64,000 nucleotides of DNA. It comes from an uncultured Thermotogae bacterium. Its GTDB lineage: Bacteria > Bipolaricaulota > Bipolaricaulia > UBA7950 > UBA9294. Position numbers and translations under genes: made by a program. Below the pieces are notes generated by a model. The model saw nothing but the letters and a program-made list of their open reading frames with translations, made no database searches and was not told where the DNA came from. Where the stretch lies: assembly GCA_964523545.1 (NCBI GenBank), contig CAZFZM010000005.1, forward strand, positions 31,805 through 95,804, read 5' to 3'. This document shows, one piece after another, positions 8,462 to 54,680 of this stretch; position 1 is the first letter of the stretch; every line of letters starts with the position of its first letter.

Positions 8462-8686
8462 TTAGCTTGCGACCTTCTCCCGGTAGACCTCGATGGCGAT
8501 GTCGGGACAGGTCATCGCGCAGAACGCACATCCGATGCAGGCCTCGGAACGCTCCATGTGAACGACGTTGTACCCACTCTTGTTCAGCGACCCGGAAAAC
8601 GCGAGGACCTGCTGGGGACACGCGGCGATGCACAGCCCGCATCCCTTGCATCGCTCGGCGTCGACGACGGCCGCACCTCTCGCCAT
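8462..8686 (-). CDS. 2-oxoacid:ferredoxin oxidoreductase, delta subunit (2x[4Fe-4S] ferredoxin)
   Basis: CKGCGLCIAACP and CIGCAFCAMTCP cluster motifs. ATG at 8686 lies 5 nt after GGGAGG; the track start GTG 8692 is the alternative. Confidence 0.85.
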   Translation of the reverse strand: MARGAAVVDAERCKGCGLCIAACPQQVLAFSGSLNKSGYNVVHMERSEACIGCAFCAMTCPDIAIEVYREKVAS

Positions 8687-8698
8687 GGGCACCTCCCT

Positions 8699-9154
8699 CT
8701 ACGTGCCGGTGTAGAACTCTTCGTTCAGCCGCTTCGCGCGGTTCTTCCGGAGTCGGGCGAGGCTCTCCTCGACGTGACCGATCCAGCTCTGGATCTGTTC
8801 CTCGCCGAGGTGAACGCGTTCGGCGGGACGGACGGAGTTCGCCGGATGATGGTTCGCCAGCGCGTTGTGCAGTTCGACGACCTCGCGCTCGAACGGCTCC
8901 TCCGCGACGGAGACGTCCTCGCCTTCGGCGAAGGCGAGGCTCGGAGAGCCGCCAGGATCGGTCGCCACGATGCGAAATCGGGCGCGCCGCCCGACCTGGA
9001 TTTGGCCGGACTCCCTGTCCGCGGGACGCTCCATGAAGCCGATCGTTCCCGAATCGAGGCGAACACGGATCCGACTCTTCTCAATCCCGACGATCTCGCC
9101 TCCGACGAGTTTGGGTTCCTCGTTCGATGTAGGATTCACTGCGTTCTCGGGCAT
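8699..9154 (-). CDS. hypothetical protein with S1/OB-like N-terminal segment
   Basis: Internal ATG at 9154 of track ORF 8699..9250; the longer form would overlap rpmB. GEIVGIEKSRIRVRLDSGTIGFM resembles an S1-type OB strand pattern. I do not recognise the rest. Confidence 0.5.
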   Translation of the reverse strand: MPENAVNPTSNEEPKLVGGEIVGIEKSRIRVRLDSGTIGFMERPADRESGQIQVGRRARFRIVATDPGGSPSLAFAEGEDVSVAEEPFEREVVELHNALANHHPANSVRPAERVHLGEEQIQSWIGHVEESLARLRKNRAKRLNEEFYTGT

Positions 9155-9192
9155 GGTCGATTGCGCCGCTCCGATCTTCGAATCGAAATCGA

Positions 9193-9384
9193 TCAGGCTG
9201 CCTTGACGACCCGACCCGACTTGATGCACCGGGTGCAGGCGCGGATCCATTTCTTCTTCCCGTCGACGACGGCGTGGACGCGCTGGATGTTCGGAGCGCG
9301 CACCCGGCGGGTGTGGCGATTCGAATGACTGACCGCGTTTCCGGCGGCCGGTTTCTTGCCGCAGACTTCACAGACTCTCGACAT
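9193..9384 (-). CDS. rpmB: 50S ribosomal protein L28
   Basis: 63 aa. MSRVCEVCGKKP..GN.VSHSN..T.R is the canonical L28 pattern. This is the Cys-containing (Zn-ribbon) form. Confidence 0.95.
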   Translation of the reverse strand: MSRVCEVCGKKPAAGNAVSHSNRHTRRVRAPNIQRVHAVVDGKKKWIRACTRCIKSGRVVKAA

Positions 9385-9411
9385 GTTCCTCTCACCTCAG
9401 CACGCGCCTCC

Positions 9412-10056
9412 TCAGGCGAGGAGGGGCTCTACGTATAGCGGCTCGACCTCGTACAGTCGGTCGACCGGTTTCTCGTTCCAACCAAGCTTGGCGATCGCCA
9501 GCGGAGACGGTCGATTCGCCTCCTCCGGAGCGATCCGAATCATCGGATGCCCTCGGAGCGCGCCGCCGATCGCAGGGGCCCCGCTTCCGACAAGGGTCAC
9601 CTCTCGATCTTCTCTCCGCAAGGCCTCCAGAAGCTCCGATTCGCGGATCAGCCGCATCGGTCCTCGCGGGCGCGAGCCGCCGAAGAACTGCGCGTAGTAC
9701 AAGTCACGGCGACTGGCCACGATCACGCAGACCCGTTTCGCGGCGGCGATCCTCGCCCGGTACGCGTCCGCACCATCGACGCCGACCAGTGCGGCGCCGA
9801 CGGTCTGGCAGAAGCCCTTGATCGCGGCGAATCCGATCCTGAGACCGGTGAACGAACCGGGACCCCGGTTGACGCACGCCAACTCGACGCAATCTCTGCT
9901 CACGCCGTTCTCGCTCAGAATCCCCTCGATCAGCGGGAACAGCTGCTCGGCGTGTCGGAGCGGGGTGTCCATCCAGCGCTCCTCGGTGAGGTCGCGTCCG
10001 TCGTAGAGGGCGACGCCGCCGAGCGGCTCGGATGTATCGACTCCCAACGCCAACAT
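9412..10056 (-). CDS. tsaB: tRNA t6A37 threonylcarbamoyl-transfer protein TsaB (YeaZ)
   Basis: ATG at 10056 (MLALGVDTSEPLGGVALYDG...). The NRGPGSFTGLRIG motif is characteristic of TsaB. Confidence 0.85.
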   Translation of the reverse strand: MLALGVDTSEPLGGVALYDGRDLTEERWMDTPLRHAEQLFPLIEGILSENGVSRDCVELACVNRGPGSFTGLRIGFAAIKGFCQTVGAALVGVDGADAYRARIAAAKRVCVIVASRRDLYYAQFFGGSRPRGPMRLIRESELLEALRREDREVTLVGSGAPAIGGALRGHPMIRIAPEEANRPSPLAIAKLGWNEKPVDRLYEVEPLYVEPLLA

Positions 10057-31578: not shown

Positions 31579-32754
31579 ATGAGGGGGAGTCCAGTACGCA
31601 AGCAGGTTCTTGGCATCGCCGCCGCCGCCCTCGTCGTCGCCGGGGGGGCGATCGCGTGGTACGTGTTGACACAGCGAAACGTCGGGTCGATTCTGGCGCA
31701 AGGGGAGAGAACGAACCTGCTTCTCATCGGGCACGACGGATCGAGCGTGGCCGACGCGCTGACGCTCCTCAGCCTGTCGGACGACGACCTCATCTTCTTC
31801 TCGATCCCGCTCGACGTTCGCGTGAAGGGATCGGACGGCCGTGTCGCACCGGCGTCGTCGGTCTTCTCCGAGTCCGGTCCGTCGGAGGCCGCGCGGACGA
31901 TCGCCGACCTGCTCGGAATCGACGTGCCTTTCTTCGTTTCGAACGGACACGGAACGCTGGTGGACTGGATCGACTCGTTCGGCGGGGTCACCGTGACGTT
32001 GGAAAGCGCGGCGATCTACGCGGACGCCTCCGTCGATCCGTCGTTGAGGGTCGAGATCCGACCGGGCGAACGAGCGATGGACGGGGCGGACGCGGTGGCG
32101 TTCGCCGTCTCGCCGAGTCTGCCCGGAGACATCGGACGACTCCCCCGTCAGCAGGTTCTCCTCCGCGCCCTTCTGGAACAGGGAGCGAGTGGTCAATCGC
32201 TCCACGAGCTGCGTTCGAAGGTCCGTGCGGCCTTCCCTTCGCTCGAGACGAACTGCACGCTCGAGGACCTCTTCGAGGTCGCGCGGGTCCTCCACGACGT
32301 TCCCGAGGAGAACGTACGCGCGATCGTTCTTCCGACGGAGGCGCGCGTGATCGAGGGAGAATCGGTCGTCGAGCCGCGGATCGTCGAGACGGAACGGATC
32401 GTCGCTTCGTCGCTCAAGGGTCTCGACCTCCTCACCCCGGACGAGGTCAACGTCGCCGTGTTCAACGGGAACGGGATCCGCGAGATGGCGAGCCGGACGG
32501 CCGAGTACCTCCGAGCGCGGGGATTCTCGATCACCCGGATCGGCAACGCCGACTCGTTCGAGTACTCGCCGAGCTACATCGTCGTGCTGACCGACGAGGC
32601 GAAGGCGTGGGTCCTCCGCGACGCGCTCCCGCCGAACGAGATCCGGATCGTCTTCCCGGAGACGTTCGAAGCGAGCTACGCCGCCCTTCGTGATTACGTC
32701 CCGGTCGGGACGGACCTGCTGCTGATCGCCGGACTCGGGATGGCGCTCGAATGA
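31579..32754 (+). CDS. LytR-CpsA-Psr (LCP) family protein with LytR_C-like C-terminal domain
   Basis: 391 aa. N-terminal TM, then NLLLIGHDG...ADALTLLSL...IPLDV..., typical of the LCP fold. The C-terminus (VAVFNGNG..G.A...A..L...GF) is LytR_C-like. Confidence 0.8.
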   Translation: MRGSPVRKQVLGIAAAALVVAGGAIAWYVLTQRNVGSILAQGERTNLLLIGHDGSSVADALTLLSLSDDDLIFFSIPLDVRVKGSDGRVAPASSVFSESGPSEAARTIADLLGIDVPFFVSNGHGTLVDWIDSFGGVTVTLESAAIYADASVDPSLRVEIRPGERAMDGADAVAFAVSPSLPGDIGRLPRQQVLLRALLEQGASGQSLHELRSKVRAAFPSLETNCTLEDLFEVARVLHDVPEENVRAIVLPTEARVIEGESVVEPRIVETERIVASSLKGLDLLTPDEVNVAVFNGNGIREMASRTAEYLRARGFSITRIGNADSFEYSPSYIVVLTDEAKAWVLRDALPPNEIRIVFPETFEASYAALRDYVPVGTDLLLIAGLGMALE

Positions 32755-43995: not shown

Positions 43996-44024
43996 AGACT
44001 AGCTGAGCATCCGGCGTTGCGCAA
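43996..44024 (-). promoter_or_regulatory. putative promoter TTGCGC-N17-TAGTCT; the -10 ends 8 nt before the smpB ATG
   Basis: Read directly from the sequence. The -35 is one arm of the palindrome TTGCGCAA (44017..44024). Confidence 0.4.
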
Positions 44025-44045
44025 GGGCGCAACGGCCGATAGGAT
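44017..44045 (+). promoter_or_regulatory. putative promoter TTGCGC-N17-TAGGAT; the -10 ends 6 nt before ATG 44052
   Basis: Read directly from the sequence. It shares the palindromic -35 with the smpB promoter. Confidence 0.4.
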
Positions 44046-44051
44046 GGCCGG

Positions 44052-44597
44052 ATGATCGTCTACGTCGCGACGCGAAACCGGATCAAGCTGCAGGCGGTAC
44101 GCGACGCCTGGGAGGCGTGGCATCGAGACGTCGAGGTGAACGTCGGAGCGGTCGATCCGCCCCCCGGACTTCCGGAACAGCCGCTCGGCGACGAAGTCGC
44201 CCGAGGCGCGATCGCGCGGGCGAAAGCGGGGCTTCCCCCGTCCGATGCAGACTTCGGGGTCGGCATCGAGGCGGGATTGATCCGGCTTCCCGGGTGCGAC
44301 TCGTGGTTCAGCTGTCAGGTCTGCGCGGTCGCCGATCGCGATGGGCGGATCTCCCTCGGGCTCGGTCCGGGATACGAGCTTCCGGAGGCGCTTCGCGCGG
44401 CGGTCTTGGATGGGACACCGCTTCGCGAGGCGCTCCGGCAGAGCCTGTTGATCGACGACGCCGAGCATCGCGGCGCGATCCACGTCCTCTCCGACGGACG
44501 GCTCGACCGCTACCGGATCACGCTCGACGCCGTTCGGATGGCCCTCGTGTCGCGTCGAGCCGAGCTACCTGACTTGCCTCAGGAGTTGTCTGCCTGA
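44052..44597 (+). CDS. inosine/xanthosine triphosphatase (YjjX/DUF84 family)
   Basis: 181 aa. N.K..AV..A......V..V.V.SG.PEQP.G.EE...GA..RA...DF.VGIEAG pattern, as in E. coli YjjX. Confidence 0.8.
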   Translation: MIVYVATRNRIKLQAVRDAWEAWHRDVEVNVGAVDPPPGLPEQPLGDEVARGAIARAKAGLPPSDADFGVGIEAGLIRLPGCDSWFSCQVCAVADRDGRISLGLGPGYELPEALRAAVLDGTPLREALRQSLLIDDAEHRGAIHVLSDGRLDRYRITLDAVRMALVSRRAELPDLPQELSA

Positions 44598-44792
44598 GCA
44601 CGAAAGCCCTTGTGTTCGCTGAGCGCCTTCACGCAGAAAGTTCCGTTACGCGCCCATCCTTTCACCGCCATCCCACGATCACGTATCAGAGGACCCCATC
44701 AGTGAGGCTCAGGTCCCGTCAAGTAGACAGAGCTGATCGGATCTGATAGCATAGGTGAGGCAACTAACCTGCGAGGAGGACGGCCGAAGACC

Positions 44793-45905
44793 GTGGCCAA
44801 ACCAGCCCGGGGTACGCCGAGGGGGCGAGTCGGGAGGAGTTCCCTGCTTGTTGTCGGCCTCCTTGTCGTAGCTGGTTGCTACTTCGTTAACTCCGAACCC
44901 CGTGCCAGCTTCGGCTACTCGCCCAACTCCTGCTACTGCGGCGCGCCGGTGCTGTTCGATGCGTCAAGTTCGTACTCAGGCAGCGACACGATTTCGTCCT
45001 ACGCGTGGCGATTCGGCGACGGCTCAACGGGGAGAGGGCGTACTGTGGAGCACGTTTTCTCCTCGCCGGGGCGGTACTCCGTTGAATTGACGGTCGTTAC
45101 CGAAAAAGGAGAACAGGCTTTCGCATCGAAGCAGGTCACGATCCTACACGGTCTCGTCGTGCCTTCCGCGTATCCGACGATCCAGGAGGCAATCGATGCG
45201 GCAAGAGACGGCGAGACGGTCGTGGTGATGCCGGGAACGTATAGGGAGAACATCAGGATTCGCGAGAAACGGATCACGGTGCAAAGCAGCGATCCTGACA
45301 GCTCGGTCGTCGTGAGGTCAACGGTCATCCAGGGTGTAGAGGAAGGAAGACCGACAATCCGGATCGGGAGCGGCTCGGAAGCGACACTGGCGGGGTTCAC
45401 TCTCTTGGCCGGCCCCCTGGAGGGCTACGAGGGAGCCAAATGCGGCGCGTGTTTCGGGATCGTCTACATCCGCGAAGCGTCACCGACGGTCCGGAAGAAC
45501 CGGATCGTGAACTCGCCCGATACAGGGATCGCCATCTATGAGTCCGGCGCGAAGATCGAGGAGAACATCATCTCGAACAATAGCGCCGACTTACCCGGTG
45601 GTGCGATCGTCGTCGACAGCTATCGGGTTGCGCCGAGGATCACCAGGAATACGTTCGAAGGGAACAGCGCGACCTCGGGAGGTGCCATCTTCATCACCTC
45701 GACGGCCGTGTTGGACGCAACCCCGGCATGCGCGGCGATGACCATCGTGACCGGCAATACGTTCCGAGACAACACGGCAACGCAGTTTGGAGGCGGAGCG
45801 ATCTTCGTGGAATACGTTGGGAACTTGAGACTCGATTCACCGGACAGCAACACCTATGTTGGCAACGAACCGGATGACGTGTTCTATGTCGTGTCGCCGA
45901 GTTGA
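44793..45905 (+). CDS. lipoprotein with PKD domain and right-handed beta-helix (pectate-lyase/NosD-like) repeats
   Basis: GTG start follows GAGGAGGA. Lipobox LLVVAGC. PKD unit (FDASSSYSGSDTISSYAWRFGDGS...H.F..PG.Y.V.L.V). Then YPTIQEAIDAA..G..V.V.PG.Y.E and repeated N.I.-type beta-helix turns. Confidence 0.75.
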   Translation: MAKPARGTPRGRVGRSSLLVVGLLVVAGCYFVNSEPRASFGYSPNSCYCGAPVLFDASSSYSGSDTISSYAWRFGDGSTGRGRTVEHVFSSPGRYSVELTVVTEKGEQAFASKQVTILHGLVVPSAYPTIQEAIDAARDGETVVVMPGTYRENIRIREKRITVQSSDPDSSVVVRSTVIQGVEEGRPTIRIGSGSEATLAGFTLLAGPLEGYEGAKCGACFGIVYIREASPTVRKNRIVNSPDTGIAIYESGAKIEENIISNNSADLPGGAIVVDSYRVAPRITRNTFEGNSATSGGAIFITSTAVLDATPACAAMTIVTGNTFRDNTATQFGGGAIFVEYVGNLRLDSPDSNTYVGNEPDDVFYVVSPS

Positions 45906-46320
45906 AATCACGAGAGTCTGCTGTGAGCTGGCGGAGTGGAGATCTCTGGCGTTGATCCTGCCTCCGAACTCGCGGAATTCAACAAGTAAGGTTAGCTGGC
46001 TCACCGCAGCGAGCAGGTTGTCTCTCATACGAGGCAATTATCGGGGGTGTGCTCAGTTGTGATCGGCAGTGCATTCTGTTGGGAACGGAGGACGACGGAT
46101 CCATGGGGTGGGTGCTGAGAATACCAGGCAGGTATTGAATTGCTGGAATGTATCTGTACAGCTGAAGGTGCTGGTAACAGCGGCGAGGTGATCCTACCCG
46201 CTCAGCCTCTTAGACTTAGCAACTCAGGTGGTACAGCTTTTCAACCGCGCCCCAAACTTGCAATTATGAGGTAAGTATTCCAACGCCAATGATTCCAGTA
46301 ATAACTGAGGAGGCGTGCTT

Positions 46321-49300
46321 GTGAAAACGCTCGAAGGAAGCAGGACGGATATATCGGGAACCCTGCGCGCTCTGCTACTGGGATTCGTTCTGGTCGTGTT
46401 ATTCCTCGCGCTGGGCCTCAAGACCATTGGAGCAGAGTCCACAAGCGTCGCGCTCTTCCGCGCACCCGCACCGAAGGAACTTGCTCAAGGCAAGCTGTCC
46501 GCTGTTCGGTCTGGACCTGAGGTTGTGCGCACGGCATTCGTGCTTGTCAACTTCCCTCTACTGGGAGACGAGACGGGGCCGGGACCCTCGAAACGCCTGA
46601 GCCTCGATCTCTTCCCAGAAGTGATTGTCGAAGTGGAGTACCGTAGAACTGAAACGTCGATACTCGGGTTCGCATGGGTTGGCGAAACGACAAGTGAGGT
46701 GGGCGGCTTTGCTGTGTTTTCTGTCGTAGAGAACGTGCTCGCAGGAGGAGTTCTCCTGCCCAGAGCTTTCTACTCTGTTGAGCATGTAAGCGGGGCGCTC
46801 TACGCGATTCACGAAATCGATCGCAGTTCCCTGCCGCCGGAAGGAGACCCACTAGACCGGCCTGACAAGGCTGGTGCCGAAGTAAGTCGCGGATCAGGAA
46901 ACGATGATGGCTCATTGATCGATGTGATGGTTGCATACACGACAGATGCGCGAATTGGGGCAGGAGGCACTGCGGACATCCTCGCGGAGATTAACGCGGC
47001 CGTTACCTGGACAAACCAGTGCTATGAGAACAGCGACGTCGCGCAGCGGCTGCGGATGGTTCATTCGGAGGAGGTAGCATACACCGAGTCAGCTGGTGAC
47101 CTGAGTCAGGAGCTCAACGACCTAGTAGGTACGTCTGACGGTCAAATGGACAACCTACACGACCTGAGGGATGCACATGCAGCCGATGTGGTTGTGCTGA
47201 TCACGGAAACAGGAACGAACTGCGGACTTGCAGATGCTGTGATGGCGGAAGCAAGCAGCGCGTTCTGTGTCGTGAAGAGGAGCTGCGCTTCCGACAATCT
47301 GACATTCCCGCATGAGTTAGGGCACCTCATGGGTGCTCGGCATGACTGGTACGTTGACAACGCGACGAGTCCTTACTCCTATGCACACGGGTACGTGGAT
47401 CCTGGACGGTCCTGGCGGACGGTCATGGCCTACTATCATGAGTGCACGGACTGCGCCGGAAGCTTCTGTAGTCGGGAACCCTACTTCTCCAATCCTGACA
47501 TAGAGTACCTCGGCGATCCAACCGGTGTAGCAGCCGGAACGGATGTCTCATGCGCCACCGGGGATTGCAGTAACCCGAGCTGTGACGCAGATGTGGCGCG
47601 AACGTTCGACGAGACCGCGCAAACCGTTGCAAACTTCCGAGACTCCCCCGAGGGCGTTGATGCTGCCCTTGTCATCGACCGCTCTGGTAGCATGAACACC
47701 GCAGAGAAGCTGCCGAAGGCAAAGGAGGGAGCGAAGTACTTCGTCGATTCTGCGCGCTTGGGGGACCAGATCGCGGTCTCAAGTTTCGCCGGCAGCGGAA
47801 CGCTGGTGAACGCGCTGACGGAGATCACCAACGCAGATCCTGCCGGTCCGATCAAGACGGGCATCAAAGCGAACATCGATGCGATGACTGCTAGTGGTAG
47901 CACGAACTTCGGCGCCGGCTTGCAGATTGCGTATGACGAGTTGGATAGTTCGGCGACACTGCAGCCGAAGTTCGCGGTCCTGATGAGCGACGGCCACCAC
48001 AACACGGGCACCTATGCAACGCAGGTGCAAGCGTTTGACGACGCGGGTTGGTCGATTCACACGATCGCCTTCGGCAGTGATGCAGACGACACCACTCTCA
48101 GGCAGATCGCCGATGACACCGGCGGCCTCTTCTACAAGGCCGAGACCACAAACCTCACCATGATCTACGATCTCATCCGGGCCCAGATGACCAGTCAGGC
48201 GGTCCTGGCGGCACTGCAATGGCTTCTCCAACTGGGGCAGACGATTACACACTACCTCCCGCCACTCAGTCCATGGAGTACGGTGATCAACTTCCTGCTC
48301 TCATGGGCCGGAAGCGATGTCGACCTGATCCTAATCCGGCCGGACGGCACGGAGGTCACGCCGGCCGACGCCGCCCTCGATCCGGACATCACGTACTATA
48401 AGGCAGCAACGTACGCATTCTACACGGTCAACAACCCGGAGCCGGGGAGCTGGGGCGTGCGGATCTCGGGAACGGATCTCCCGGATCCCGAGATCGTCAC
48501 GCTCAGCGTCACGGCAGCAAGTCCGGTTGTGGCGGGGTTCTACGGGTTCCAGGCCGCCTATGCTCCCGGCGACGTCATTCCGATTGCGGTTCAGCTCCGC
48601 GAGCAAGACGCCTCGCCCATTCTAGGAGCAAACGTCCAGGTCGATGTCAAGGCTCCGAACGGGACGGTCCAGACCCTCGTGCTGTTGGACGATGGGGCTC
48701 ACGACGACCTGTTGGCCAACGATGGTATCTACGGCGGTGAGTACACGAGCACGCTGACAGAGGGGTTCTACGGACTCGACGTCTCCGCTACGGGCAACTA
48801 CTCGGGCGGGCCCTTCTCCATCCAGATTGTCGGACGCGTCCTGGTTGGCGAACCGCCGTCTGCTGAGGGCTTCTTCGACTTCGAGTACGCCAATCAAGCT
48901 TCCATGGACGGTGCCGGGTGGACTCGCAGCGGACTGTGGCACTTGGCCGATGAGGCAACGTGCGCGTCGCTATCGCCCGTCCCTGTGCCGTTCCCGTCGT
49001 CGACGCACGCCGCGCACTTCGGCGATCTGGCCACCGGAGCGTATGAGTCCGATGGTTCCATGGCGCCGAGGACGGCGGTTCTGGAGAGACGAGCCCAGCA
49101 GCCAGAGGCAAGTCCGCTGGCGCAGGAGGCGAGAAGCTTCGGAGAGCTGATCAGCCCGGAGATCCAGCTTACGTTGCAGGATCAAATCGACCTGCGATTC
49201 CAGCACTTCCGTTCGGTGGAGTATTACGCCGACGGCCCGTACGACAAGACCTACGTCCAAGCGCAATTCGACGGGGGCGCGTGGCAGACGGTCTGGGGCC

Positions 49301-50583
49301 TCGATTCGCGGACGCCTTCGCAGGGGGCGTGGGTTGGTGTCGGGCCGATCCCGATTCCTGTGCCAGCAGGGGCGACTGTGATGCAGCTCAAGTTCGTCTT
49401 CGACTCCGTGGACAACTACGGGAATGACGGTCTGGGGTGGCTGATCGACGATGTCTCCGTTTCGGCACCAGGACCCGTAGCACTCACGATCTCCACGCAG
49501 TACCTCCCGACTGGGAAGGTCGGGCTGGCCTACAGCGCGTCGCTATCGGCCTCCGGTGGAACCCCTCCGTACGCGTGGACTTCCACGGGCCTGCCTGAGG
49601 GATTTGCGCTCGATCCTGCGAGCGGCACGATTTCCGGCGACCCGACGACCGCCGGGACCTACGACGTCACTGTGACCGTCACGGACGCGGTCGCCGCGAC
49701 GGCCTCGCGTCAGTATCAGCTGCAGATCAACCCTGCGGAACCGCCGCCTGTCGGTATCCTCTTCGAGGAGGACTTCGCCGACACCGGTGGCTGGACGATG
49801 AGCGGGCTGTGGCACACGACCGCAGCCTTGGGATGTGCCGATCTCACCGGGTACGGGACGTCGGCCTACTACGGCATCGGTGATGCCTGCGACTACGACA
49901 CCGGGGCTCGGACAACCGGTGTGCTCACTTCTCCGGTGATCGACGTCACGGGCGCTGTGGCGGTTCGGGTTCGATTCGATCACCTGCGCGAGGTCGAACC
50001 GTTCGGAGACGGCGCATACGACCTGACGCTCGTCGAAGCCAAGCGCGGCAATGGGTCTTGGGAGGTGATATGGGCCAGGGACTCCACGTCGCCGTCAACG
50101 GCCGCGTGGGAGCAAGCGACCACGAGCTCCTTCGCGACGGACGGAGCCGATAGCCTTCAGATTCGATTCGTCTTCGACACGGTGGATCAGTGGGCGAACG
50201 ACTTCCTCGGCTGGCTCGTGGACAATGTCTTCGTGGACTCGATGCCATCCGGGACTCCACTATCGCTGATGTCGGTTCTAGAGGCTGTCCCGAGAGGCAC
50301 GGGTGGGCGGGTGGAGATCTTCAACGCGCCGAACCCTGTTCGCGAAGACGGGACGGAGTTCGTGGTGCGCGGTGTCGACGCGACTGTGCTGCAAGTTGAG
50401 GTCTATGACCTTTCCGGTACGCTCGTTTGGGAAGGACAGACCGCGGGCAACGAGCTTCCTTGGGACGGCGTAGGGACCAACGGGGAAAGACTCGCTAATG
50501 GGGTCTACCTGTACAAGGTTTCCGTCCAGATGGGGGACGCGTGGCTGGTCTCCGAGATCCGGAAGCTGGTCATCTTGCGGTAA
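46321..50583 (+). CDS. giant secreted multidomain protein: metzincin protease - vWA - beta-sandwich - 2x MAM/LamG-like - Ig-like - T9SS/FlgD-Ig-like CTD
   Basis: GTG 46321 lies 8 nt after GAGGAGG (the track start 46315 is only 2 nt after it). Signal anchor. HELGHLMGARH at 47311..47343. DRSGS MIDAS motif at 47677..47691. See findings for the remaining modules. Confidence 0.85.
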   Translation: MKTLEGSRTDISGTLRALLLGFVLVVLFLALGLKTIGAESTSVALFRAPAPKELAQGKLSAVRSGPEVVRTAFVLVNFPLLGDETGPGPSKRLSLDLFPEVIVEVEYRRTETSILGFAWVGETTSEVGGFAVFSVVENVLAGGVLLPRAFYSVEHVSGALYAIHEIDRSSLPPEGDPLDRPDKAGAEVSRGSGNDDGSLIDVMVAYTTDARIGAGGTADILAEINAAVTWTNQCYENSDVAQRLRMVHSEEVAYTESAGDLSQELNDLVGTSDGQMDNLHDLRDAHAADVVVLITETGTNCGLADAVMAEASSAFCVVKRSCASDNLTFPHELGHLMGARHDWYVDNATSPYSYAHGYVDPGRSWRTVMAYYHECTDCAGSFCSREPYFSNPDIEYLGDPTGVAAGTDVSCATGDCSNPSCDADVARTFDETAQTVANFRDSPEGVDAALVIDRSGSMNTAEKLPKAKEGAKYFVDSARLGDQIAVSSFAGSGTLVNALTEITNADPAGPIKTGIKANIDAMTASGSTNFGAGLQIAYDELDSSATLQPKFAVLMSDGHHNTGTYATQVQAFDDAGWSIHTIAFGSDADDTTLRQIADDTGGLFYKAETTNLTMIYDLIRAQMTSQAVLAALQWLLQLGQTITHYLPPLSPWSTVINFLLSWAGSDVDLILIRPDGTEVTPADAALDPDITYYKAATYAFYTVNNPEPGSWGVRISGTDLPDPEIVTLSVTAASPVVAGFYGFQAAYAPGDVIPIAVQLREQDASPILGANVQVDVKAPNGTVQTLVLLDDGAHDDLLANDGIYGGEYTSTLTEGFYGLDVSATGNYSGGPFSIQIVGRVLVGEPPSAEGFFDFEYANQASMDGAGWTRSGLWHLADEATCASLSPVPVPFPSSTHAAHFGDLATGAYESDGSMAPRTAVLERRAQQPEASPLAQEARSFGELISPEIQLTLQDQIDLRFQHFRSVEYYADGPYDKTYVQAQFDGGAWQTVWGLDSRTPSQGAWVGVGPIPIPVPAGATVMQLKFVFDSVDNYGNDGLGWLIDDVSVSAPGPVALTISTQYLPTGKVGLAYSASLSASGGTPPYAWTSTGLPEGFALDPASGTISGDPTTAGTYDVTVTVTDAVAATASRQYQLQINPAEPPPVGILFEEDFADTGGWTMSGLWHTTAALGCADLTGYGTSAYYGIGDACDYDTGARTTGVLTSPVIDVTGAVAVRVRFDHLREVEPFGDGAYDLTLVEAKRGNGSWEVIWARDSTSPSTAAWEQATTSSFATDGADSLQIRFVFDTVDQWANDFLGWLVDNVFVDSMPSGTPLSLMSVLEAVPRGTGGRVEIFNAPNPVREDGTEFVVRGVDATVLQVEVYDLSGTLVWEGQTAGNELPWDGVGTNGERLANGVYLYKVSVQMGDAWLVSEIRKLVILR

Positions 50584-50765
50584 CCTGGTCCGTCCCTCCT
50601 TCCGTAGGATGATCGCCCGGTCGATGTCGCCTGGACGGACAGCCGTCATGGGGAAGGTCGACAAACTCCTTTGCGTTTCGTGACTTCAGTCGGTGCCTGT
50701 GAGCGTTGCGTCCGTATGCTCAGTGCGGGACTGATTCCAGCTTGCGCATAAAGAAGGAGGTCCTC

Positions 50766-53714
50766 GTGAGAAGCCTTGTCTTGTGCCTGGCATTGGGGTG
50801 CCTTTCGCTTTCAGTATTCGCTGCTCCGACGTTTACCGATCAGAGCGTGGAGGCAGGGCATCTCAACCCCGGGGACACGGAGATAGCCGTTCAGACGGTC
50901 CGAGTGACGGGTGACTCTACCCACGCTACGGACTTCAATGCGATCCAGATCCGCAATGGCGGGACCGCTACGTATCAGCAGATCACTCGAATCGAAGTCC
51001 GAGACGGCGGGACCACAATCGCTGCAATGGACACACCGATCGGTCTGACCTCGCAGAGTGGAGTGACGATCGCGACGACCCATTCGCTGCCGGCGGGAGA
51101 TACCGAGGATCTCCGGATACTGGTGTGGGTAGGGGATACGAGTGCGGTTCAGGGCGGCGAGACGCTGCAGTTCGAGGTTAGGTTCCACTACTACCTGAAT
51201 GGTACGGCGGGAACGAGCCGATGGATTGCGGATGGCCAGGATGAAGACATAACGCATACCGGCTTCGAAAACATCAACGACTCCTCACCGGCCGCGAACA
51301 ACTACAACCCCGGTGACGAAGGGACAGTCCAGCGAGTGAGCTTCAGGGACGAGGACGCGAACACGTCGGACCAGACCGTGACGACCGTGCTGATTCAGAA
51401 CACGGGAACGGCCACCGCCGACGACTTGGAGAGTCTGACAGTTGCTATCACGCATGGCGGAGGCACGTGGCAAGAGACGAAAACGACCGGGCTGGCCGCC
51501 TGGAAGAACGGAGGCATCGTCTTCGATCCTCCCGACATTCTCATCGGTGATGAGGACCAGCTCACCGTGGAGGTCGATGTCGAAATCGCTGCTCCTACTC
51601 CTACCGTTCCGACTGACAACCACACGATACGCACGAGGACAACGCTGAACGTAACCGAGAATGCGCAGGCTTTCAGTCAAGAGGTCGTCGCCTCGACGAC
51701 ACAACGGATACGAAAGGCAGGGCTTGAGGAGGTCGAGGACGACAGCACGATCCCTCCTTCTGGTGTGCTCAATCCGAATGAAACGCTGACTCAGAAGATC
51801 ATCGTCCGCGATCGGGACATCAACGCAGAGCGGGTCAACGTTACGCGCCTCTGGGTGCGTAACCTCGGAACTGCGGCCGAGACCGAAATCGAGAGGATCA
51901 TCGTGCGAAGCGGCGGCGCGCCGCTCGGTACGTTCACCGGAGCTCAGATCGCTCCATTCCTGACGGGGGTGTGGCTGGATATCACGGACGTGCTCGTCGC
52001 CAATGAGGGAGACCGCACGTTCTTCATCGAGTACGAGATTGCCTCCAGCCAGACTCTTCAGCCGCAGGTGAAGCTGGAGTGCAACGAGGACGGAAACGTC
52101 TATACCACCCTTCCGGTTGACTATCCCGCTCCGGTCACATTGTACGGAGCAGGACTGGAGATCCTCGAAAACGAGAACCTGACGACAGAGACGGTCTATT
52201 CATTCCAGAGGTTCTGTGCTCAGAAAATCCGCATGGAGGACCTCGACGAGAACACCAACTCGGTCACGGTGAACCCTGTGGTGTGCAAGAACCAAGGGAC
52301 TGCCGCCGACAGCGAGATTGCCAGGATCGAAGTGCGGAACGCGGACGGGGCTCTGCTGGGAGAGACAACTGAGATCGGAGGGTTCAACGCAGGTGGCGTG
52401 ACGATTCCGACATTGAGCAACAACGCCGTCTCCGATGACTCGGAGGGGTACCTCTGGATCTGGGTTACTCTGGCGGGGACAGAAGACACAGTCGCGGGCC
52501 ATACGGTCGAACTGCAGACGACGGTTTTCCACACCGAGGGAGGAACCTCCTACAACCGAGCGGTCCAAGGAAATCCATGGACGATCGCTCTTAACAATCG
52601 TCCGGTGCCGGACTTCACCTTCGAGGAGGCGGCCGCTCCGGCGTCGGTCCGGCCGATGGCCGACTTCACCTACGAGGACACGATCCAGTTCAACGGGACG
52701 GCGACCGACCCGGACGGCGACGACATCGTCGAGTGGCACTGGGACTTCGGAGATGGGAACACCTCGGACGAGCAGAACCCGACGCACCAATATCCGAACG
52801 GAGGGACGTTCGACGTGACCCTGACGGTGACCGACGAGCACGGCGTGACCGGTTCGGTGACGAAGACGATCGAGGTCGAGGGGCCGCCGAACGAGGAGCC
52901 GACGATCGACGAGCTGACGGCCGATCCGGAGAACCCGGCGGTCGATCAGGACGTCGAGTTCGCCGTGACGGTGACGGATCCCGATCAGCCCGCCGGAACG
53001 GCGTTCGGCTACGAATGGGACTTCGGCGACGAGGCGACGAGCACCGTCGCGAATCCGACGCACAGCTACGACGAGGAAGGGACCTACACGGTGACGGTGA
53101 CCGTCACGGACGCGCAGGGGGCGACGGACACGGCGACGATCGACGTCACCGTCGGGAACGACCCGCCGACGTTGACCGGAGTCACCGCGAATCCGGCGAC
53201 CGCAGGCACCGGGGACGAGGTCGCCTTCACCGCCACCGGCTACGACGATCCGGACGACGACGCGGTCGGCCACTACGAGTGGGACTTCGACGACGGGACG
53301 ACGACGGAGACCGACGGAGCGACGGCCAACCACATCTTCGCGACGCCCGGCACGTACACCGTCTCGGTGGTCGCAGTGGACGAGCGTGGCACCGAGAGCG
53401 CGGCGGTGACCGTGCAGGTGACCGTGACCGGCCCGGCGCGGACGATCCTGTTCGCCTTCCCGAACCCGGCGGAGACCAACGCGACGTTCAACTACTTCCT
53501 GCCCGACGGGGCGACCGATCCGGTCCTTCGGATCTACGGCCTGCTCGGCGAGTTGGTCTTCGAGCAGGAGCTTCAGGAGGACGGAACGCCCTTCGTGTGG
53601 GATCTCCGCACGGCCGGGGGGGACAGGTTGCCGAACGGCCTCTACTTCTGCGTCGTCACGGTGACGGGAGCGAACCGGTCGGCGGTCTTCCGCCTGCTGA
53701 TCGACCGCCAATAG
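50766..53714 (+). CDS. secreted protein: four uncharacterised ~140-aa tandem modules, three PKD domains, T9SS/FlgD-Ig-like CTD
   Basis: GTG 50766 lies 5 nt after GGAGG. Signal peptide LVLCLALGCLSLSVFAAP. The modules share ..V.V.D.D.N...V..I.V.N.GTA....I..I.VR.G. PKD cores WDFGDG, WDFGDE and WDFDDG are present. Confidence 0.85.
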   Translation: MRSLVLCLALGCLSLSVFAAPTFTDQSVEAGHLNPGDTEIAVQTVRVTGDSTHATDFNAIQIRNGGTATYQQITRIEVRDGGTTIAAMDTPIGLTSQSGVTIATTHSLPAGDTEDLRILVWVGDTSAVQGGETLQFEVRFHYYLNGTAGTSRWIADGQDEDITHTGFENINDSSPAANNYNPGDEGTVQRVSFRDEDANTSDQTVTTVLIQNTGTATADDLESLTVAITHGGGTWQETKTTGLAAWKNGGIVFDPPDILIGDEDQLTVEVDVEIAAPTPTVPTDNHTIRTRTTLNVTENAQAFSQEVVASTTQRIRKAGLEEVEDDSTIPPSGVLNPNETLTQKIIVRDRDINAERVNVTRLWVRNLGTAAETEIERIIVRSGGAPLGTFTGAQIAPFLTGVWLDITDVLVANEGDRTFFIEYEIASSQTLQPQVKLECNEDGNVYTTLPVDYPAPVTLYGAGLEILENENLTTETVYSFQRFCAQKIRMEDLDENTNSVTVNPVVCKNQGTAADSEIARIEVRNADGALLGETTEIGGFNAGGVTIPTLSNNAVSDDSEGYLWIWVTLAGTEDTVAGHTVELQTTVFHTEGGTSYNRAVQGNPWTIALNNRPVPDFTFEEAAAPASVRPMADFTYEDTIQFNGTATDPDGDDIVEWHWDFGDGNTSDEQNPTHQYPNGGTFDVTLTVTDEHGVTGSVTKTIEVEGPPNEEPTIDELTADPENPAVDQDVEFAVTVTDPDQPAGTAFGYEWDFGDEATSTVANPTHSYDEEGTYTVTVTVTDAQGATDTATIDVTVGNDPPTLTGVTANPATAGTGDEVAFTATGYDDPDDDAVGHYEWDFDDGTTTETDGATANHIFATPGTYTVSVVAVDERGTESAAVTVQVTVTGPARTILFAFPNPAETNATFNYFLPDGATDPVLRIYGLLGELVFEQELQEDGTPFVWDLRTAGGDRLPNGLYFCVVTVTGANRSAVFRLLIDRQ
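50859..52595 (+). repeat. four tandem coding repeats of an unrecognised ~140-150-aa module
   Basis: Approximate units, in track-ORF numbering: aa 52-190, 199-340, 353-485 and 495-630. Aligned by eye on NPGD/NPNE ... N.GTA ... I.RIEVR anchors. Confidence 0.65.
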
Positions 53715-53726
53715 GAGGGAACGACT

Positions 53727-54680
53727 GTGAAACGGACCAAGATCGTTGTGATGGTGGCCCTCCTCAGCGTGGGGCTGGGCCTTGCGGGGGGCGCGCAGCA
53801 GGCGCAGACCGTCTTTGAGATCGAACCGGGCGTCGGCATGCTTGGAGCGGCCGCCGCGGGGCTCTCCATCGTCAGCGGAGCGGAGACGCTCTACTACAAT
53901 CCGGCGAGCCTCTCCGAGCTTTCGGGGATCAGCTTCAGCTCGTTCTACGCCTCGTACTTGGGACAGGCGAGCTACTCGGCGTTGGCCCTGACGTTTCGCA
54001 ACTGGGGCGTGGCGGCGCTGTTGCTGGGGTCGACGGGGATTCAGGGGTACGACGACGACGGGAATCCGACGGACACCCTCGCGTACCGAAACACGGGCTT
54101 CCTGTTCGGAGTCGGACTCGATCCGAGCGATCTCCCGTTCCTGCCGAGCTTCGCGATCGATATGTCGCTCGGCGCGCGGATCAAGATCCTGAGAGTGCGG
54201 TTGGGGGAAGCGACGGGGAGCGGCTTCTCCTTCGACCTCGGCTTTCGCACGGCCTTCCCCGACATGCATTTCGGCGGTTTCGGCGTTTCGGATGTCGCGT
54301 TGGGGGTCACGGCCGTCAACCTGTTCGGCGGGGTCGCCTACGACACGGCCGACGACAGCTTCCTGATGGACATTCAGATCGGCGTGTCGGCGTTGTTTGC
54401 TGAGATGGTCCGCGCGGCGTTCGACGTGCACCTCTCCGGGGCGGTCCATTTCGGCGTGATCTACGAGCCGATGCCGACCTTCGCATTGCGCTTCGGAGTG
54501 ATCTCCCGGGACGGTGTGTCGGTGACCGCCGGCCTCGGCATCAACGTGGAAGGATTCCTGCTCGACTACGCGTACGTCACGCACACGCTCGGCGGGACGC
54601 ACCGCGTCTCGCTCACGCTCGACTTCTCGAGCCTCGACGTCAGTGCGCTGAGTCGCTCGTTGAGGCGTCTCCTTCCGTGA
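53727..54680 (+). CDS. PorV/PorQ-like outer-membrane beta-barrel protein
   Basis: 317 aa with signal peptide. GVGMLGAAAAGLSIVSGAETLYYNPASLSEL resembles the PorV/PorQ N-terminal signature (GMGGA...A.yyNPAgL). Strand-like segments alternate throughout. Starts 13 nt after the preceding CTD-bearing gene. Confidence 0.6.
   Translation: MKRTKIVVMVALLSVGLGLAGGAQQAQTVFEIEPGVGMLGAAAAGLSIVSGAETLYYNPASLSELSGISFSSFYASYLGQASYSALALTFRNWGVAALLLGSTGIQGYDDDGNPTDTLAYRNTGFLFGVGLDPSDLPFLPSFAIDMSLGARIKILRVRLGEATGSGFSFDLGFRTAFPDMHFGGFGVSDVALGVTAVNLFGGVAYDTADDSFLMDIQIGVSALFAEMVRAAFDVHLSGAVHFGVIYEPMPTFALRFGVISRDGVSVTAGLGINVEGFLLDYAYVTHTLGGTHRVSLTLDFSSLDVSALSRSLRRLLP

Follow-up and report, generated by a model that had tools for sequence, protein, structure and literature searches.

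The stretch of DNA analyzed in this study (hereafter the window) is 64,000 nucleotides (nt) long and corresponds to positions 31805–95804 of contig C5 (CAZFZM010000005.1) of G000 (GCA_964523545.1), a 2.26-Mb metagenome-assembled genome (MAG) of an uncultured member of the Bipolaricaulota, which has 37 scaffolds with N runs, a completeness of 85.5% and a G+C content of 65%. The names that its homologs bear assign it to Candidatus Bipolaricaulota, which is known as Acetothermia, too. Downstream of a gene for a yjjX-like NTPase, the window contains three genes on the same strand, whose products are P0001, P0002, and P0003, followed by a PorV/PorQ-like gene. Our results indicate that this region is likely a cargo locus with variable content, whose position in the chromosome is conserved, whose genes were put together from exchangeable parts and whose mosaic pieces had different histories. 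Abrupt steps in base composition were found inside the genes for P0002 and P0003, the nearest relatives of P0002 and P0003 switched where the composition did, and the two parts of P0003 yielded discordant trees. Moreover, different relatives carry different enzymatic heads in the P0002 slot, and the junction inside P0003 was also found in independently assembled contigs.

In the following, genomes are designated by G-numbers (G000 being the source MAG), loci or contigs by L-numbers, proteins by P-numbers and genera by g-numbers. The features of the region are listed below (GC3, G+C content at third codon positions; aa, amino acid residues; Ig, immunoglobulin; CTD, C-terminal domain; T9SS, type IX secretion system).

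44052..44597, + strand: yjjX-like NTPase (PF01931, Pfam 125 bits), left resident flank
44793..45905, + strand: P0001, PKD domain and right-handed beta-helix (Pfam PKD_4, Beta_helix), in the variable block
46315..47688, + strand: P0002 head, signal/pro-region and M12B reprolysin-like metalloprotease with HELGHLMGARHD (Reprolysin_4), the piece with the lowest GC3
47689..50583, + strand: P0002 body and tail, VWA, MG2-like, two repeated domains of ~180 aa flanking a He_PIG Ig domain, and T9SS-type-A-like CTD (Pfam, NCBIfam)
49100..51743, + strand: stretch colinear with L064 at 87.3% nucleotide identity, running from the tail of P0002 through the intergenic gap to the beginning of P0003 (blastn)
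50706..52601, + strand: P0003 N-part, signal peptide and four tandem Ig-like beta-sandwich modules of ~150 aa, a probably imported allele class (GC3, trees, AlphaFold)
52602..53714, + strand: P0003 C-part, short duplicated PKD-start motif, three PKD domains (PKD_4 x3, 176 bits) and T9SS-type-A-like CTD (TIGR04183), a putative resident-type cassette
53727..54680, + strand: PorV/PorQ-like beta-barrel candidate (NCBIfam PorV_fam, 53.9 bits), right resident flank

The start of P0003 is placed here at 50706, as opposed to 50766 in the database gene call, and its end at 53714.

The preliminary description of this DNA, made from its letters and open reading frames (ORFs), had placed the right boundary of an A/T-rich segment inside the third gene, at a domain junction, and had suggested that this gene was assembled by domain-level recombination. 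The boundary was recovered by a change-point scan, in which the GC3 of P0003 rose from 0.712 to 0.922 at codon 632, which is nt 52602 (z = 7.85, permutation p < 0.0005), and it is at this step that the ancestry of the gene switches. When amino acid identities to the orthologs were calculated per segment, the N-part of P0003 (aa 41–632) was 65, 62–63, 77, and 95% identical to those of G008 (genus g2), P0008, L039, and P0005, respectively, and the corresponding identities of the C-part (aa 640–1002) were 42, 49, 64, and 78%. The reverse was observed for G002, G001, and G006 of the same genus, with identities of 38, 35, and 23% for the N-part and 79, 70, and 64% for the C-part, respectively. The identities to orthologs of other genera were 40–44% for the N-part and mostly 52–64% for the C-part (43% for G060 and 40% for G017). 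Along P0003, the sliding nucleotide identity to G002 rose from ~50% to 75–90% and that to G008 fell from 65–70% to ~50%, and the two curves intersected at aa 615–640 (nt 52550–52630).

The trees of the two parts were also in conflict. In the reference tree of the PorV-like gene, the genus formed a clade with support of 99/98, and G008 was placed beyond a 100/100 branch. In the N-part tree, G000, P0005, L039, G008, and P0008 were grouped together at 100/100, and monophyly of the genus was rejected by the approximately unbiased (AU) test (p = 1.1e-5, difference in log-likelihood of 576). In the C-part tree, G000 was grouped with G002, G006, G001, G043, and P0005 at 100/99, and the clade of the N-part tree was rejected (AU test, p = 6.3e-5). 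P0003 thus shows two marks of a mosaic gene, which are significantly different phylogenies of adjacent segments of one ORF and a localized breakpoint with an independent signal. With this crossover of identities and these trees, the suggested domain-level recombination is supported for the third gene, and it extends to P0002 as described below.

The sequence at the junction (...NHRPVPDFTF...) was conserved across the P0003 alleles. A 29-nt direct repeat at 52599–52678 (83% identity, spacing of 51) encodes RPVPDFTFEE...RPMADFTYED, in which the first PKD strand and a linker are duplicated where module and PKD domain meet. The duplicated motif is kept in many genera and is missing from G008, P0008, G060, G006, and G016. 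It was considered as a recombination scar specific to G000, which was ruled out because its conservation in many genera makes it ancestral to this type of C-part. Given that the duplicated linker is present in the type of G000 and its genus and absent from that of G008 and P0008, the crossover most likely occurred between module 4 and the linker. The AlphaFold model of aa 41–640, which was based on an alignment of 28 sequences, contained four all-beta sandwiches (mean predicted local distance difference test score of 91.8), and a Foldseek search with this four-module model returned only generic Ig-like arrays with low template modeling scores, of which the PrgB adhesin was the top match.

Two further candidates were examined for P0003 and rejected. 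The difference between its N- and C-parts in identity to P0005 (95 vs. 78%) is not a second discordance, as the nucleotide identity was ~90% throughout except for a replaced PKD3 (62–68%). Recent gene conversion within the genome was also ruled out, as a blastn search of 44598–53714 against the whole of G000 matched only itself; the PKD and CTD paralogs of G000 were at most 45% identical. PKD2 of P0003 was 86–90% identical to that of G002 at the nucleotide level and its flanks were ~78% identical, which may point to a local exchange of later date or to biased gene conversion.

The DNA had been described as A/T-richer after the yjjX-like gene. The G+C content of 44598–52620 was indeed 0.599 compared with a genome mean of 0.650 (standard deviation of 0.022 for 8-kb windows). 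The dip is, however, bipartite: the G+C content was 0.58 at 44.7–48.3 kb and 0.59 at 50.4–52.6 kb, with 0.64 between them (48.3–50.4 kb), and the minima were at 45.6–47.7 and 50.4–52.5 kb. Counts by codon position placed the deficit almost wholly at third codon positions. The GC3 expected from the amino acids of each segment and the genome-wide codon usage was 0.84–0.85 (about 0.845) in every segment, and the observed GC3 ranged from 0.61 to 0.92. It was 0.741 in P0001 (expected 0.844, z = −5.6), 0.607 in aa 1–440 of P0002 (z = −13.9), 0.769 in aa 441–1422 of P0002 (z = −7.2), 0.712 in aa 1–632 of P0003 (z = −9.7), and 0.922 in aa 633–1002 of P0003 (z = +4.2). The yjjX-like gene had a GC3 of 0.80, as expected for the host. 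Amino acid composition was therefore ruled out as the cause, and the deviation persisted when it was controlled for; amino acid content accounts for ~0.02 of the difference in total G+C between the N- and C-parts. In addition to the step in P0003, the scan revealed a second one in P0002 at codon 458, which is nt 47689 (permutation p < 0.0005) and had been missed in the preliminary description. No GC3 step was detected in P0001 by the same scan.

In the set of genes with 300 or more codons, GC3 was ≤0.61 in 1.2%, ≤0.712 in 7.9%, and ≥0.922 in 1.7%. Whether the deviation lies within genome-wide variance, a question raised earlier, has a divided answer: the intragenic steps stand out, and the region as a whole lies at about the 4th–5th percentile of G+C content and is one of several low-GC3 clusters, as G000 holds roughly 15–20 others. 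The distinctive feature of the region is therefore its pair of intragenic steps, not low GC3 as such. Other clusters with GC3 of 0.54–0.70 in G000 include C3:8000–31000, C7:1–13500 and 105000–110000, and parts of C4 and C6; a PKD/CTD match was found among them only at C3:8278–9717, and they are likely further islands.

Of the codons that had been noted as common in the segment, ACA, ACT, GTT, and GGA are elevated relative to the whole genome, and AGA and AGG are elevated chiefly in P0001. In the N-part of P0003, ACA and ACT occurred at 19.0 and 15.8 per 1000 codons compared with 3.0 and 2.2 genome-wide. In the P0002 head and the P0003 N-part, GTT occurred at 14–27 and GGA at 27–41 per 1000 compared with 8.6 and 16.6, respectively. 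The PKD and CTD part of P0003 contained no ACA, ACT, GTT, or AGA. The log-likelihood ratio per codon between host usage and usage of the G008 type ranged from −0.15 to +0.05 for the putatively imported parts and from +0.16 to +0.22 for the flanks and the C-part. Thus, codon usage of the G008 type suits the former about as well as that of the host, which is not so for the flanks. The intergenic gaps of 195, 409, and 122–182 nt, which had been regarded as unusually long, are ordinary for this genome (rough median of 72 nt, 75th percentile of 238 nt).

A low GC3 is not a habit of surface genes with PKD domains or CTDs, as the median GC3 of 21 such genes in G000 was 0.843 compared with 0.848 for the others. 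Nor is the codon regime tied to the type of domain, as most P0003 orthologs had equal GC3 in their N- and C-parts. For instance, the values were 0.81/0.82 in G002, 0.82/0.83 in G006, 0.58/0.57 in G013, and 0.85/0.84 in G016, and the equal values of G002 and G006 in particular show that the type of domain does not account for the step. The ortholog of G001, which belongs to a different allele class, also has a step (0.69/0.80).

Similar to P0003, P0002 consists of parts with different relatives. Its head was recognized as Reprolysin_4 with 78.5 bits (cut-off 22), and the zinc-binding motif HExxHxxGxxH is present in its translation as HELGHLMGARHD. No match to this M12B head, which comprises the first about 440–458 residues, was found in 73 other genomes of the family, and its best matches in any database lineage were from Anaerolineales (43%) and Ardenticatenaceae (41%) of the Chloroflexota. 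From the VWA domain on, P0002 was 63% identical to a protein of G008, which bears a Trypsin_2 head instead. Proteins that bear an S8 subtilisin, C39-like, C11, or trypsin head matched residues 441–860 at 64–75% identity, and the tail (aa 1146–1422) was 83–90% identical to proteins headed by a polysaccharide deacetylase or M64. The slot of P0002 is occupied by the M12B head in G000, Trypsin_2 in G008, S8 in L068, and deacetylase/M64 in L064, L070, and L071, of which the last three are at the same position after yjjX; the C39 and C11 heads sit on bodies homologous to that of P0002. Overall, at least seven kinds of enzymatic head were found on a body or tail of the P0002 type.

The window and L064 are colinear (87% nucleotide identity) only over 44013–44554 and 49100–51743. 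In place of window positions 44555–49100, L064 has a gene for a 276-aa protein and a polysaccharide-deacetylase head, with a breakpoint at ~49.1 kb inside P0002. The gene order in L064 and L070/L071 is yjjX, a toxin-antitoxin pair in some, the 276-aa gene, the gene for the deacetylase-headed protein, the P0003 ortholog, and the PorV-like gene; the N-part of their P0003 orthologs was 94–96% and their PorV-like protein 87% identical to those of the window. P0001 was 68% identical to its counterpart in L039 and 62% to that in L068. Its beta-helix part was not found in any of the 7 other genomes of the same genus and occurs in genera g3, g4, and g6 (64–67%) as well as in g2 (48–49%). From these comparisons, the low-GC segment is a patchwork of pieces with different nearest relatives, with additional breakpoints in P0002 at ~47.69 kb and, relative to L064, at ~49.1 kb.

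Some versions of the locus contain further genes. A PIN/PhdYeFM toxin-antitoxin pair, which is absent from the window, was found between yjjX and the cargo genes in L070 (389–1089) and L071 (1917–2617), both from ENA. In L072, an IS3-type transposase pair (rve, HTH_Tnp_1) at 8544–9670 is located 2 kb downstream of the gene for P0101, a C39-headed relative of P0002; no other mobility gene was seen in the neighborhood of these genes in any of their versions.

To compare the locus across the family, DNA of 30 relatives was searched and the fetched loci were annotated. The family-wide gene order is serS, ABC, NosD, permease, (smpB), (yjjX), P0003 ortholog, PorV-like, and tgt, and the PorV-like gene was next to the P0003 ortholog in most of the family loci examined. 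Given this synteny, P0003 and the PorV-like gene are old residents. The yjjX-like gene is also syntenic, with 63–85% identity in same-genus relatives. The left flank is conserved to window position 44546, and nucleotide colinearity with G002 and L064 stops at 44546–44554, at the end of the yjjX-like gene. Similarity to G002 (78%) returns at 52593, inside P0003, and ~2.2 kb separates the two matches in G002. Between yjjX/smpB and P0003, nothing was found in G002 and G006, and only a P0001-like gene in L039. G008 and L068 possess all three genes in the order P0001, P0002, and P0003, with a uniform, host-like GC3 of 0.58–0.67. In L049 of genus g6 (G012:C31:1–19809), the locus encodes a P0001-like protein, four further large CTD proteins, a P0003 ortholog, and a PorV-like protein, all with a GC3 of 0.50–0.63. 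The synteny comparison that had been proposed thus shows that the cargo varies between fixed flanks. The earlier view that the three genes, or their 5' parts, have a separate origin applies to P0001, P0002, and the N-part of P0003, and not to P0003 as a whole, which is syntenic across the family. Similarly, the PKD and CTD part, which had been credited with resident composition, is of the same-genus type in its ancestry, and its GC3 of 0.92 exceeds that of the host.

As had been reported for the sequence at first sight, neither tRNAs nor flanking direct repeats accompany the segment: no tRNA was found in the part of the window from 30 to 64 kb, Rfam gave no match, no flanking direct repeats were detected beyond the similarity internal to the PKD domains, and no integrase or transposase domain was found in the three proteins by Pfam and NCBIfam scans. 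In G008 (L011, 6812–8609) and L068 (7788–9387), two extra genes are present between those for P0002 and P0003, which encode a 200–228-aa protein and a second PorV-like paralog (25–27% identical); they are missing from the window, where the gap is 122–182 nt. Contigs of five same-genus MAGs end in this locus (G001:C44/C4, G003:C118, G004:C6/C19, G005:C3/C68/C83, and G007:C12/C33), and the breaks in G004, the closest relative, match window positions ~44.06 and 53.42 kb. These contig ends are consistent with strain-level heterogeneity that defeats assembly.

We propose that a block comprising P0001, the body of P0002, and the four Ig-like modules of P0003 may have been recombined into this lineage. 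The block would belong to the version of the locus otherwise found in a lower-GC genus (G008 and L068, 62–65% identity), where it has the low GC3 typical of its host. The left crossover would have been directly after yjjX and the right one in the conserved junction between module 4 and the first PKD domain of P0003, so that the resident cassette of three PKD domains and sorting CTD would have been kept. In a separate event, the P0002 slot would have gained its M12B head from outside the family; the tail of P0002 is shared with proteins of close relatives that bear other heads. The imported parts would have been only partly ameliorated to the codon usage of the host, leaving the GC3 steps at 47.69 and 52.60 kb. 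The block may have arrived in a single event, probably by homologous recombination at the conserved junction. The same allele class of the N-part was found in G000, L039, L040, and L070, with a GC3 of 0.67–0.72 beside C-parts and flanks of 0.80–0.92. The uniformly low GC3 in G008 and L068, the steps in the group of G000, and the fit to codon usage favor import followed by partial amelioration, and as to its direction we lean slightly toward transfer from the lower-GC lineage into this one. The import does not appear to be recent, as the step is common to relatives that share the allele at 77–95% identity. With an identity to the low-GC lineage of 62–66% and a step shared by the relatives, the event would be older than their divergence.

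Several observations weigh against this proposal. No close donor was found, as the nearest lower-GC relatives were only 62–66% identical, which is about the ordinary inter-genus divergence of core genes (68% for tgt and 48% for the PorV-like gene). The step persists across lineages that differ by 5–23% in the N-part, which calls for slow amelioration or a maintaining force. The GC3 of the C-part ranks among the top 2% of genes and exceeds the 0.80–0.84 of its orthologs, for which the proposal gives no account. At the level of genes, only the P0002 head is extreme (~1st percentile), and the N-part of P0003 is at about the 8th percentile. Moreover, the background genes came from a naive ORF caller, and the reference tree relies on a single flanking gene and genus codes. 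Given that the identity to the presumed donor equals ordinary core divergence, an old polymorphism replaced in G002, G001, and G006 could be envisaged. The N-part class and the layout of the three genes would then have been present in the common ancestor of both genera and been kept vertically here, and the low GC3 would reflect a lag or a local regime, such as reduced biased gene conversion where sequences have diverged too far for recombination, and be no signature of a donor. The sharing of the step by G000, L039, L040, and L070, the step in the other allele class of G001, and the unusually high GC3 of the conserved and presumably more recombining C-part agree with such a history. However, G008 is separated from the genus clade by the 100/100 branch of the PorV-like tree, the divergent N-part alleles of G002 and G006 are fully host-like (0.81–0.82) and thus indicate no general lag, and a segment kept vertically is expected to equilibrate with its genome. 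Thus, we regard ancient polymorphism as unlikely.

Import and replacement of parts at this locus also compare with two explanations of another kind. Two populations could have been joined through the conserved PKD/junction sequence during assembly or binning, and the incompleteness, scaffold number, and N runs of the source MAG, as well as the population heterogeneity suggested by five same-genus MAGs that break exactly at the locus, would fit. This is nevertheless very improbable: both flanks, which are syntenic in G002 and G006, are on one contig, so that two misjoins would be required; contigs from other samples, L040 (JGI), L070 (ENA), and L039 (Logan), span the homologous junction and join the same N-part to a PKD/CTD part of the same type with the same GC3 step; and colinearity with L064 extends from the tail of P0002 into P0003. 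The composition might also have no separate origin at all and result from amino acid composition, low expression, or chance within the genome-wide variance, since ~5% of 8-kb windows are equally GC-poor, ~8% of long genes have a GC3 ≤0.71, and amino acid content does explain the small part of the N/C difference given above. We consider this scarcely credible, because the observed GC3 departs widely from an expectation that is constant across segments, the change points coincide with homology breakpoints, expression level cannot vary inside one ORF, and the conflict between the trees does not depend on composition.

The CTDs of P0002 and P0003 matched TIGR04183 with 24.6 and 29.5 bits, respectively (cut-off 23), which was borne out in a genome scan. 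The match of PorV_fam to 53727..54680 was full-length and below the cut-off of 90 bits, and there was no Pfam match. In the incomplete G000, PorU matches were confined to CTD-like tails (26–34 bits, cut-off 420), and SprA reached 22 bits (cut-off 200). The only match to the SprA model, which is very weak, was a 1466-aa ORF near ~10.2 kb of C29; it adjoins a 767-aa ORF with a TIGR04183 CTD of 29.5 bits (G000:C29:7820–10433) and may be a divergent translocon candidate. A literature search for Bipolaricaulota/Acetothermia with type IX secretion or PKD returned nothing relevant. P0002 and P0003 are probably surface-exposed or secreted cargo, whose stalks and CTDs would suit the resident export and whose heads would be exchangeable. 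The selective reason may be that the tails must fit the resident export and anchoring while the exposed heads diversify.

Similar to the cargo proteins of the Bacteroidota T9SS with type A sorting domains, which are handled by PorV, the proteins of this locus possess CTDs that pass TIGR04183, a neighbor that aligns to PorV/PorQ over its full length, and an architecture of enzyme or adhesin head, Ig/PKD stalk, and CTD. Different from them, however, the PorV-like protein scored below the cut-off, PorU and SprA were not found above their cut-offs in this 85.5%-complete MAG, and the host belongs to the Bipolaricaulota, outside the clades with an established T9SS. Mosaic surface and antigen genes are known to arise by intragenic recombination, including those of flagellin (whose ends are conserved and whose center can be replaced and is often lower in GC), pilin, S-layer proteins, and M-protein alleles. 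Similar to these genes, P0003 retains its export and assembly part, its exposed part appears to have been replaced horizontally with a breakpoint at a conserved junction, and its parts are phylogenetically discordant, with atypical composition of the putatively imported one. Different from them, it is an N-terminal Ig-like array on a PKD stalk and T9SS-type-A-like CTD that varies, and its exchange partners belong to separate genera, whose genomes are far apart in GC content.

Rhs and contact-dependent inhibition (CDI) polymorphic toxin loci combine a conserved, GC-rich core with a tip that is AT-richer and can be swapped, with the boundary inside the ORF at a conserved motif. The locus resembles them in its sharp intragenic composition step at a conserved motif and in the many modules on one scaffold. 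However, Pfam/NCBIfam scans of P0001, P0002, and P0003 revealed no RHS/YD repeats, toxin tip, or immunity gene, it is the N-terminal part that varies, and in place of nucleases or toxins, the heads comprise proteases and a deacetylase. Thus, the locus is not a member of the Rhs or polymorphic toxin systems, and the likeness is one of evolutionary mode only. Similar to integrase-mediated genomic islands, the region has an atypical composition and is patchy among close relatives. The lack of an integrase, transposase, tRNA, and flanking repeats, the intragenic boundaries, and the position fixed family-wide differ from such islands and point to homologous replacement over site-specific insertion.

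The evolutionary mode described here, with mosaic surface genes and heads swapped on a conserved scaffold, is well known, and it is described here for an uncultured and little-studied phylum. To our knowledge, the Bipolaricaulota have no cultured, genetically tractable member. It is conceivable, though quite unlikely in our judgment, that the locus beside the PorV/PorQ-like gene is a dedicated head-exchange site of the Bipolaricaulota, in which the stalk and CTD with motifs such as NHRPVPDFTF would serve as a recombination handle, metallo-, serine-, and cysteine-proteases, deacetylase, and Ig arrays would circulate between genera as cassettes, and sorting would be T9SS-like without canonical PorU and SprA. 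If true, the head-exchange site would be a polymorphic secreted-enzyme system with a polarity reversed relative to that of Rhs/CDI.

Reading a composition step inside an ORF by eye can thus reveal a true recombination breakpoint between domains. Annotators should compare these genes per domain and not as whole orthologs, and for work with MAGs, the exchange would explain the contig breaks of related genomes at this locus. T9SS-type sorting domains and a PorV-like gene are also flagged in a phylum in which the remaining machinery went undetected. For the Bipolaricaulota, the results suggest a way in which surface proteins and secreted enzymes may diversify, where the stalk and sorting domain would be kept and the head would be swapped, even between genera that are ~10 GC points apart.

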